Assembly (NCBI GenBank): GCA_022790575.1
Contig: JAAVXM010000034.1
Location: 9,467-73,466 of the forward strand
DNA: 64,000 nt
Direction of reading: 5' to 3'
Origin: Clostridia bacterium
GTDB lineage: Bacteria > Bacillota > Clostridia > TANB77 > CAG-508
Positions within the stretch are counted from its first letter, which is position 1; the number at the start of each line of letters is the position of its first letter. The notes below the pieces were generated by a model that saw only the letters and a program-made list of their open reading frames with translations, did not search any database and was not told the origin of the DNA. A program made the position numbers and the translations under genes. Of the stretch, positions 43,184 through 44,327 are shown piece by piece.

Positions 43184-43212
43184 TTGACAAAATTAATAGG
43201 AAATGTTAATAT
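43184..43212 (+). promoter_or_regulatory. Sigma-A-type promoter of cassette 1
   Basis: TTGACA (43184-43189), 17-nt spacer, TAATAT (43207-43212). Confidence 0.55.
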
Positions 43213-43300
43213 ATATATTATACAAGTAGAGAAATCTACAGTTGAAATCTTCCTAGTTACAATGTACCATTCGCTTTAGAATCATAAGGAGGGAAACATA
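43213..43300 (+). promoter_or_regulatory. Conserved 5' leader of cassette 1 (hairpin + anti-SD box)
   Basis: GTAGA gaaa TCTAC (43226-43239), and AAATCTTCCTAGT with CTTCCT at 43249-43254, complementary (one G-U) to the SD AGGAGG at 43287-43292. The leader is strongly conserved with cassette 2. Confidence 0.45.
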
Positions 43301-43654
43301 ATGGCTAAAGTTAGCGATTTGCTGTTAACCAAAGAAGAGAAACCGAAAGGAAATCTCAAACTGGCACAGGAGACAGTTGAAGCCTATATCAAACTGATAG
43401 AGGAAGAAAGAAGTGTGCATGGAAGATACAAGACAGATGAACTCATTGGGTGGATTAGTCCAAATGGATGGGGTGAAAACCATAACCAAGGATGTATGAT
43501 ACTGTATAGTTTAAAGGACACAAACCCTATGGTTCTGTTTAATAAAGGTATAGCTGTTGAGCAGTTGAAATACCTTTTAAAACAGAATGGGCTTTATGTT
43601 AAAGAAGTGGAACGAGCAGATTTTCCGCCAATTCTTACAATTCGTATCCTTTAA
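43301..43654 (+). CDS. Small hypothetical protein, paralog A (117 aa)
   Basis: MAKVSDLLL...VEAYIKLIEEE..HGRY...NGLYVKEV...IRIL. Strong RBS. GC is visibly higher than in flanking DNA. No family was recognised. Confidence 0.7.
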   Translation: MAKVSDLLLTKEEKPKGNLKLAQETVEAYIKLIEEERSVHGRYKTDELIGWISPNGWGENHNQGCMILYSLKDTNPMVLFNKGIAVEQLKYLLKQNGLYVKEVERADFPPILTIRIL

Positions 43655-43689
43655 AGGATTTCCAAATTTAGATAAAATTTGAACACATA

Positions 43690-43721
43690 AGAGCATTTTC
43701 CATTACTATGGAAAATGCTCT
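43690..43721 (+). terminator. Terminator of cassette 1
   Basis: AGAGCATTTTCC attactat GGAAAATGCTCT followed by TTGTG. Confidence 0.55.
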
Positions 43722-43777
43722 TTGTGTATATATGATATATACACATGAAAATTGAATTTTTATAGAAATATGTAAAG

Positions 43778-43806
43778 TTGACAAAACAGCAAAAGGATGT
43801 TATTAT
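43778..43806 (+). promoter_or_regulatory. Sigma-A-type promoter of cassette 2
   Basis: TTGACA (43778-43783), 17-nt spacer, TATTAT (43801-43806). The ORF-track start at 43778 is this -35 box. Confidence 0.55.
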
Positions 43807-43897
43807 ATATCATGTTACTAGTAGAAGTATCTACTATTTAAATCTTCCTAGTATCAATGTCCGTATAACATTTATTCGACTAAAGGAGGAGAACATA
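43807..43897 (+). promoter_or_regulatory. Conserved 5' leader of cassette 2 (hairpin + anti-SD box)
   Basis: GTAGA agta TCTAC (43821-43834), AAATCTTCCTAGT with CTTCCT at 43844-43849, and SD AGGAGG at 43884-43889. Confidence 0.45.
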
Positions 43898-44263
43898 ATG
43901 GCTAGAATTAGTGATATGTTGTTGAAACCAAGGAAAAAGAACCGCGAACAGGAAAGCAACTCTGAAGCAGCGCGGAAGGCTGTCGAATCCTATAAGATGC
44001 TGATTGATGAGAATACTGACCTGCACCACCGCTATGAGGAAGACGTACAGATTGGTAACATTGAGGTAGATGAGAACGGAAAAGCAACAAGTTTGACTTT
44101 TATCGCTCTTCGCTCTCAAAAGGTTGAAATTCTCAATGTCAACATTGAGGGTGGAACTGTAGGTGTCAACCATCTGAGTCGTTTTCTCGAGCAGGAAGGT
44201 CTTTATGTGAGAGAAGTTCATCAACGGCCTATCTTGAATTCGTTTGAGATTCGAATTCGTTGA
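43898..44263 (+). CDS. Small hypothetical protein, paralog B (121 aa)
   Basis: ATG at 43898 follows AAAGGAGGAG. It reads MARISDMLL...VESYKMLIDEN..HHRY...EGLYVREV...IRIR. This is the most GC-rich stretch seen in the window. Confidence 0.7.
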   Translation: MARISDMLLKPRKKNREQESNSEAARKAVESYKMLIDENTDLHHRYEEDVQIGNIEVDENGKATSLTFIALRSQKVEILNVNIEGGTVGVNHLSRFLEQEGLYVREVHQRPILNSFEIRIR

Positions 44264-44294
44264 GGAATATCCAGTTCAAAAAGAGAAATAGAAA

Positions 44295-44327
44295 AGAGTC
44301 CCTCCCTATTACTATAGGGAGGGCTCT
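44295..44327 (+). terminator. Terminator of cassette 2
   Basis: AGAGTCCCTCCCT attactat AGGGAGGGCTCT followed by TTG. The loop and flanks match the cassette 1 terminator, with compensatory stem changes. Confidence 0.6.

Follow-up and report, generated by a model that had tools for sequence, protein, structure and literature searches.

Morons are genes which carry a promoter and a terminator of their own, are inserted between genes lying side by side in relatives, and show a deviant base composition (PMC3594210). Here, we describe two collinear gene cassettes of about 600 bp each, located at positions 43184-44334 (+ strand) of a 64,000-nucleotide (nt) stretch of contig JAAVXM010000034.1 from a Clostridia bacterium (in the following, the whole stretch is called the window). 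As for phage morons, e.g., HK97 gene 15, each cassette has its own (predicted) promoter and terminator, the insertion separates genes that are adjacent in relatives, and the GC content of third codon positions (GC3) is deviant. In contrast to phage morons, the cassettes reside amid core chromosomal genes (spoIVB, tRNA-Gly, rpsF-ssb-rpsR) outside of phage or prophage, have no relatives in IMG/VR or INPHARED and match no PHROG. Furthermore, two paralogous units arrived together, and a conserved leader of about 80 nt travels with the gene. Since the setting is chromosomal core DNA and not a prophage, we call the cassettes moron-like but do not file them as morons. We assign a probability of about 60% to the reading that an acquired block of two self-contained moron-like cassettes is present in a conserved spacer of an uncultured gut Clostridia bacterium with a reduced genome.

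Other described systems share part of these features. Leaders that sequester the Shine-Dalgarno (SD) sequence, such as ROSE and fourU thermometers or cspA-type leaders, are long, contain a pyrimidine-rich stretch able to pair with the ribosome binding site and place the start codon within a hairpin, as is predicted for the cassettes; monocistronic units (predicted here) with small protein products are a further point in common. The cassette leader differs from them, i.e., it has no Rfam match, is also conserved in primary sequence, and its pairing is not significantly above that of shuffled controls. 5'-terminal stabiliser hairpins are known from Firmicute mRNAs, such as the aprE and ermC leaders in Bacillus subtilis, in connection with RNase J. 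The cassettes are alike in showing a short stable hairpin a few nt from the predicted 5' end, where the position follows from the -10 box only. Finally, ORFan genes and genomic islets beside tRNA genes share the lineage-specific small gene, the atypical composition and the tRNA adjacency. Unlike these, the cassettes are inserted 5' of the tRNA promoter and not in the tRNA 3' end, come without an integrase, and belong to a family which, along with its leader, is seen again in no fewer than four further low-GC hosts.

The acquisition becomes visible when the locus is compared with its relatives. Based on SpoIVB (best match 76%), these are uncultured small-genome gut Clostridia, including Clostridium sp. 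CAG:343, CAG:492 and 26_21. In the nearest relatives (loci L009 and L010, with SpoIVB 76% and 71% identical), the order is spoIVB, a Zn-ribbon open reading frame (ORF) on the minus strand, two tRNA-Gly genes and rpsF-ssb-rpsR. The spacer that leads from the Zn-ribbon ORF to the tRNA pair comprises about 115 nt in both, compared to 1.33 kb in the window. The left junction of the block aligns to positions 19-52 of the L009 spacer and the right junction to positions 34-71, with scores reached by 2/500 and 1/500 shuffles, respectively. That is, about 18 nt of the L009 spacer are present at both ends. Repeat finding registers this overlap as a direct repeat of 24 nt (79% identity, spacing 1222 nt) flanking the block. 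None of the 80 related loci holds a family member.

We conclude with high confidence that the pair is a horizontally acquired, lineage-specific insertion of 1.2 kb. Given that the 1.2-kb block is missing from the same spacer in L009 and L010, it appears to have arrived recently and as a block, and, because no third junction repeat is seen in the inter-cassette spacer (its score there is reached by 84/500 shuffles), probably in one event; a separate insertion of each cassette was rejected on the same observation. We also looked for terminal inverted repeats and for a transposase but found none that was convincing. The first-pass annotation had considered the pair an old duplication kept as two independently transcribed units. 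An old duplication at this locus does not agree with the empty spacers of the relatives, nor with the protein identities, i.e., the two proteins share 34% identical residues with each other and 36-43% with members from other hosts (29-31% for P0006, the most divergent one). Since the identity between the two does not exceed that to most members of other organisms, the split between the two units is as old as the family itself, whose tree is star-like.

The codon usage of both genes is foreign to the host and makes them strong compositional outliers, a feature that the first-pass annotation does not mention. While host genes show an average GC3 of 0.146 +/- 0.04 (computed from host ORFs of at least 150 amino acids, aa), the values for coding sequence (CDS) 1 and CDS 2 are 0.34 and 0.43, at an overall GC content of 0.38 and 0.43, respectively. 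Recoding both with host codon usage yields a GC3 of 0.15 and 0.14 +/- 0.03, and no trial out of 2000 went beyond 0.25. Host-rare codons, including CTG, CAG, CCG and CGG, account for 23-27% of the CDS codons. The same picture is obtained in the other hosts (loci L004-L008), where the GC3 of the family ranges from 0.27 to 0.40 and that of the neighbouring genes from 0.06 to 0.13. Extra mRNA structure was rejected as the source of the high GC content, with inconsistent z-scores against synonymous shuffles (-2.4 to +0.7).

The protein family is extremely rare, i.e., an almost unique orphan. A HMMER search against 1.84 billion representatives (about 15 billion proteins) returned six family proteins, and a profile search of 5.8 billion clusters the identical six; their sources are short Logan or ENA contigs and the window's own NCBI contig of 80 kb. 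No member was found in 185,579 GTDB species genomes or in JGI metagenomes (pattern-plus-tblastn scans), in IMG/VR (A4 pattern scan), or in INPHARED and PLSDB (tblastn with the single query P0004). The family has no match in Pfam, NCBIfam, PHROGs, PADLOC or the PDB sequences. The best match, to DUF5640 (18 bits vs. a cut-off of 28.5), and one to NatA are sub-threshold, concern a single member each and were dismissed. On the level of structure, Foldseek reports no significant fold match, neither against PDB (best E 0.06, template modelling (TM) score at most 0.44) nor against BFVD (best E 9e-3, TM 0.39-0.45, to an uncharacterised phage protein). This is in accordance with the first-pass annotation, which did not recognise the family and took the two proteins for divergent paralogues (34% identity, E 3e-15); the match to a well-characterised family that it had named as a refutation was not obtained.

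The homologue loci L004-L008 represent four other low-GC host contexts, each with a single cassette, and no second copy is found within the available flanks, those of L005 and L006 included. Their layout is TTGAC(A)-17-TATAAT with TG, the leader, AAGGAGG, a distance of 7-8 nt, ATGGCTAAAATTAGTGA, and a terminator of the form AAAAGAG-stem-CTCTTTT. The genomic contexts are unrelated, e.g., an FGE-sulfatase gene and upp in one case, the end of a histidine kinase gene and a sortase gene in another, and others. In L006, a 33-aa ORF at 223-324 (MKYVGNKNENIEYTKRAGAYAIIIDDNKDEIIE, then stop), which we take to be similar to a truncated NUDIX-type N-terminus, has its stop right at the cassette's -35 box. 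This ORF may be a scar left by insertion, in which case the cassette may be able to land inside genes.

The features of the locus are listed in Table 1. Repeat families D1-D4, D6 and D12 (n=6) recur at a spacing of 594-609 nt and reveal the collinear homology of the two units. Every element that the first-pass annotation had listed for their common architecture is present, and so is the adjacent tRNA-Gly pair (44428-44618). Details had to be adapted: the leader, given as about 90 nt, is there, with a transcribed length of about 82 nt (88 nt from -10 box to ATG), and the identical terminator loop ATTACTAT is present in sequence but folds into the 4-nt loop UACU, with an A-U and a U-A pair closing it. 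A 161-aa version of the second ORF starts at TTG 43778, i.e., within the -35 box of unit 2, and is an artefact of ORF listing rather than evidence of a start codon.

Table 1. Features of the two cassettes and their direct surroundings (window coordinates).
Feature	Position	Strand	Remarks
Direct repeat, left copy (imperfect)	43128-43151	+	bounds the 1222-bp insertion; matches a segment present once in L009
Promoter, unit 1	43184-43212	+	TTGACA-17-TAATAT with TGn extension; position conserved in all homologues
Leader 1	43219-43300	+	5' hairpin GUAGA-GAAA-UCUAC 43226-43239; anti-SD UCUUCCU 43248-43254; SD AGGAGG 43287-43292
Predicted start-codon hairpin, unit 1	43295-43323	+	RNAalifold on six members; weakest of the six copies
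CDS 1	43301-43654	+	117 aa, ATG at 43301; orphan small alpha/beta protein; AlphaFold2 predicted local distance difference test (pLDDT) 82.7
Intrinsic terminator, unit 1	43689-43730	+	15-bp perfect stem (43689-43722), loop UACU, tail CUCUUUGUGU; -30.3 kcal/mol, z -8.3
Promoter, unit 2	43778-43806	+	TTGACA-17-TATTAT with TGn extension
Leader 2	43813-43897	+	5' hairpin GUAGA-AGUA-UCUAC 43821-43834; anti-SD UCUUCCU 43843-43849; SD AGGAGG 43884-43889
Predicted start-codon hairpin, unit 2	43892-43920	+	RNA folding prediction
CDS 2	43898-44263	+	121 aa, ATG at 43898; paralogue of CDS 1, 34% identity
Intrinsic terminator, unit 2	44289-44334	+	-27.6 kcal/mol, folding z -5.2
Direct repeat, right copy	44350-44373	+	bounds the insertion
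tRNA-Gly(UCC) pair	44428-44501, 44545-44618		with own perfect promoter, 3' of the cassettes

The promoters score 10/12 (unit 1) and 11/12 (unit 2) and are among the top promoter-like sites of a 2.1-kb scan. Each unit has the signals of its own transcription unit, and two independent transcripts, as assumed by the first-pass annotation, are likely on these predicted signals.

Beside these elements, the inter-cassette spacer contains a perfect palindrome with 11-nt arms (TGTGTATATAT-G-ATATATACACA, 43724-43746) directly 3' of terminator 1 and about 35 nt 5' of unit 2's -35 box. The palindrome is without an equivalent 5' of unit 1 or 3' of unit 2 and may be a second terminator hairpin, an operator or a recombination scar. 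On the minus strand, an antisense ORF of 114 aa (43880-44224, GC3 0.56) spans nearly all of CDS 2. As unit 1 has no equivalent, this ORF most likely arises as a side effect of the GC-rich frame on the sense strand.

It is practically certain that both ORFs are protein-coding. The 34% identity of the two proteins is far beyond chance, 27/41 of the identical residues are encoded by different codons, and the nucleotide differences by codon position (57/49/70) are highest at third positions. Furthermore, the ORF stays open in all six divergent members, four of which come from other organisms at 29-48% identity. Conserved are an N-terminal nonapeptide (MAKISDMLL), a helix (ARKAVEAYKKLIE) and a C-terminal stretch (VYFD...EQLxYFLRQEGLYV...I.I). 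AlphaFold2 on the six-sequence alignment yields a confident model (pLDDT 82.7, predicted TM score 0.76), and a two-sequence run the same topology, i.e., H20-35, E48-53, E64-68, E77-80, H86-95, E98-105, E108-116 (H, helix; E, strand). The predicted fold is thus a five-stranded sheet with two helices, while residues 1-9 are disordered in the model (pLDDT < 50).

The products have about 14 kDa and no hydrophobic segment. Five members have an isoelectric point (pI) of 5.1-6.7 and the sixth one of 8.5, and since the pI is mostly acidic to neutral, binding of RNA by the protein itself is argued against. Invariant residues are mainly hydrophobic, plus S5, E27, Y29 and Y43, and no conserved constellation of catalytic-looking residues is found among the six members. 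We therefore expect a non-enzymatic binder. We give an even chance to a stoichiometric binding or adaptor protein with an accessory role and no obligate pair.

The leader is better conserved between hosts than the gene it precedes (nucleotide identity of 65-76% vs. 46-60% for the CDS). The leader of unit 1 is closest to that of L005 (76%) and 65% identical to that of unit 2. Units 1 and 2, L005 and L006 share a 5-bp hairpin, GUAG(A/G)-N4-UCUAC, at a distance of about 8 nt from the predicted 5' end. Its loops are GAAA, GCAA, GUAA and AGUA, i.e., 3/4 are of GNRA type, and its pairing is kept by G-U in L006. AUCUUC(C)UAG follows 7 nt beyond the hairpin, and in the consensus fold the UCUUCCU therein can form a 7-bp helix with AAGGAGG. 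For the region AACAUAAUGGCUAAAAUUAGUGAUAUGUU, RNAalifold predicts a hairpin of 11 pairs enclosing the AUG in all six members. Its pair 22/33 is G-U in four of them, G-C in unit 1 and A-U in L004; another pair occurs as A-U (four times) and as U-A. The conservation of the first nine codons, which exceeds that of the rest of the gene although the protein model is disordered there, may in part be due to this hairpin.

No Rfam 15 family besides tRNAs matches at E <= 1 within 40000-48000, and the gathering-score matches in the whole window are tmRNA and tRNAs only. A covariance model of the leader recovers just its own training copies within the window and about 1 Mb of related DNA. Leader occurrences elsewhere were rejected, i.e., the at least 120 JGI and 19 IMG/VR matches of a 27-nt pattern are due to chance, with only three among the matches listed reaching CTAG, and these lie inside a DsbB-like CDS. 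A predicted temperature series gave flat values for units 1 and 2. We consider the chance that the SD and AUG sequestration predicted from sequence constitutes real regulation (gated translation) somewhat short of even.

All four conserved leaders also contain C(A/G)AUG, which opens a tiny upstream ORF (uORF; 43260-43277 and 43856-43867 in the window, and in L005 and L006). The peptides are MYHSL, MSV and MTH, each followed by a stop, while the uORF of L005 runs for 14 codons, with a stop overlapping the main start as UAAUG. All of them lack a separate SD, and the uORFs may be incidental to the second hairpin.

For the two cassettes, we propose the following mode of action. The housekeeping sigma factor would transcribe each cassette from its near-consensus extended -10 promoter, which is predicted to be strong and constitutive, and the hairpin terminator would end the transcript. 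By analogy to Bacillus, the small 5' hairpin with its mostly GNRA-type loop probably protects the 5' end of the mRNA. UCUUCCU may pair with AAGGAGG, and the AUG may be held in the second hairpin together with codons 2-9. Since SD and AUG can be sequestered in this way, translation is probably throttled or conditional. As leader and gene move together from host to host, the trigger should be either universal (temperature, ribosome) or self-encoded, as far as can be inferred. The soluble products of about 14 kDa would act stoichiometrically as binding or adaptor proteins.

A number of observations weigh against this picture. Concerning the insertion, the flanking repeat is A/T-rich and of modest significance when taken alone (17/500 shuffles), and the search revealed neither a mobility gene nor a phage or plasmid setting. 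A GC-richer donor with the family was not found either, and all known members are from very low-GC hosts despite a protein divergence above 50%. A simple recent import leaves part of this pattern unaccounted for, and selection on synonymous sites may be involved instead. Concerning transcription, promoters, terminators and transcription start are sequence predictions, and the U-tract of terminator 1 is interrupted (UUUGUGU) such that some read-through into unit 2 is possible. Concerning the leader, all four sequences with an anti-SD:SD helix have an invariant one, i.e., it shows no covariation, and the predicted SD pairing of 0.76-0.93 is reached by 3-30% of shuffled-leader controls. Nor does the leader always accompany the homologues, which the first-pass annotation had named as a point to check: those of L004 and L007 are different and without the conserved leader motif. 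The function of the protein, finally, is argued purely by inference.

Among the rival explanations, one takes up the first-pass annotation and would be an ancient tandem duplication in situ, with both proteins kept as partners (toxin/antidote-like, sensor pair or heterodimer). The paralogues are indeed adjacent with the same layout, and terminator details are common to both units but missing in other members (loop AUUACUAU, tail CUCUUUGU); a heterodimer is conceivable. This is opposed by the missing block in the nearest relatives and by a mutual identity not above that to members from other hosts, and homologues elsewhere are singletons (L004, L007/L008; no second copy within the flanks of L005 and L006), an outcome that the first-pass annotation itself had named as refuting. 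Pairing is thus no trait of the family, which speaks against a role as obligate partners or as toxin and antidote. Type II toxin-antitoxin systems also comprise two adjacent small genes on acquired DNA, but form a bicistronic operon for two non-homologous proteins; the cassette proteins are homologous to each other, have their own promoters with a terminator in between, and neither contain a toxin or antitoxin domain nor match any defence, toxin or antitoxin model of PADLOC or Pfam. We thus regard partnership after an ancient duplication as quite unlikely. Slightly less credible still is that the genes are native, very highly expressed stress proteins similar to cold-shock genes, with a codon bias resulting from expression-linked selection. 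Genes of the csp type also combine a near-consensus promoter with a strong SD, a long structured leader and a strong terminator, and a GC3 excess in every host fits selection better than repeated recent import. However, the genes are missing at the locus in 80 related genomes as well as from the 185,579 species genomes, the neighbouring ribosomal protein genes have a GC3 of only 0.17-0.19, and G-ending and host-rare codons (CTG, CAG, CCG, CGG), unlike typical optimal ones, are among those in excess.

Two further rivals concern the nucleic acid itself. Large non-coding RNAs (ncRNAs) are often spotted as GC-rich islands with their own promoter and terminator in AT-rich genomes, which the host with 27% GC is as well. 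The islands could accordingly be structured ncRNA genes or dual-function RNAs with incidental ORFs, and unit 1 and L004 fold somewhat better than their synonymous shuffles (z -2.3 and -2.4). We nevertheless rejected an RNA gene in place of a protein gene based on codon pattern, AlphaFold2 model and shuffle folding, and see hardly any room for this explanation: six members have diverged at about half of their nucleotides with the ORFs still open, substitutions are codon-like, a strong SD and ATG are conserved, the predicted fold is confident, the excess of RNA structure is inconsistent between members (z -2.4 to +0.7), and Rfam yields no match at E <= 1. For the leader, it could be the DNA that is recognised, with the palindrome GTAGA-N4-TCTAC (about +8 to +21) as well as the ATCTTCCTAG box serving as repressor operators. 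Conserved arms with a variable 4-nt spacer are as for a dimeric DNA-binding site, and a position just 3' of the start site suits a roadblock repressor. Still, the palindrome is broken in L006 (GTAGG/TCTAC) where G-U keeps the RNA pairing, three of the four loops are GNRA, and UCUUCCU is complementary to the SD. Moreover, a cassette moving from host to host would leave the host repressor behind, and the covariance model finds no further copy in about 1 Mb of related DNA, i.e., no sign of a regulon. An operator function is therefore unlikely in our view.

Going beyond the acquired moron-like block, such cassettes could be a so far unrecognised class of tiny non-autonomous mobile expression units that circulate in extremely AT-rich gut Firmicutes. 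Promoter, a novel cis-regulatory leader RNA, novel-fold protein and terminator would move together, an A/T-rich target of about 18-24 nt would be duplicated, and the GC-rich synonymous sites would be kept by selection (mRNA survival or slow decoding) instead of being the trace of a donor. We mention this as speculation with a small chance of being correct.

Further observations were made in the surroundings. The Zn-ribbon protein next to the block (105 aa, CxxC...CxxC, 42781-43098 on the minus strand) has no Pfam match and is syntenic beside spoIVB in relatives (7257-7562 in L009). Five small ORFs (184, 140, 143, 195 and 189 aa) are located 5' of spoIVB at 38559-41316. The last of them shows a hydrophobic N-terminal segment (MEDTSISIIGILLASVLMFIVPLIM...), has no Pfam match and presumably resembles a pseudopilin. 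Concerning base composition, a gene of 471 aa with PIN and PhoH domains (PhoH2-like, 60695-62107) is an outlier as well (GC 0.396, GC3 0.346). Another small monocistronic unit with raised GC content is found at 13600-14030, between MutS2 and the next gene. It comprises a promoter-like TTGCAT...TATAAT, AGGAGG at 13667, a 97-aa ORF (13681-13974) with a GC3 of about 0.37 and, at about 13978-14022, a hairpin terminator. The ORF has no Pfam match and belongs to a cluster of 5 members; a relation to the cassette family was rejected (hhalign probability 0.1%). The unit may be a second moron-like acquisition.

In summary, the finding is an acquired orphan gene cassette, accompanied by the side-puzzles of a conserved leader, a persistent GC3 excess and a fold without relatives. 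Its value is moderate, since no long-standing question is touched and orphan small genes are common in metagenomes. If true, the locus would provide a clean natural instance of a moron-type 'plug-and-play' gene outside of phages that brings along an element for its translational control and whose empty site is identifiable in relatives. Given that the protein family is without relatives in sequence or fold, new information would come from a structure or from an interaction partner. Finally, a GC3 three- to five-fold above that of the host genes in every member, despite their deep divergence, poses a small puzzle on the codon evolution of acquired genes in AT-rich genomes.

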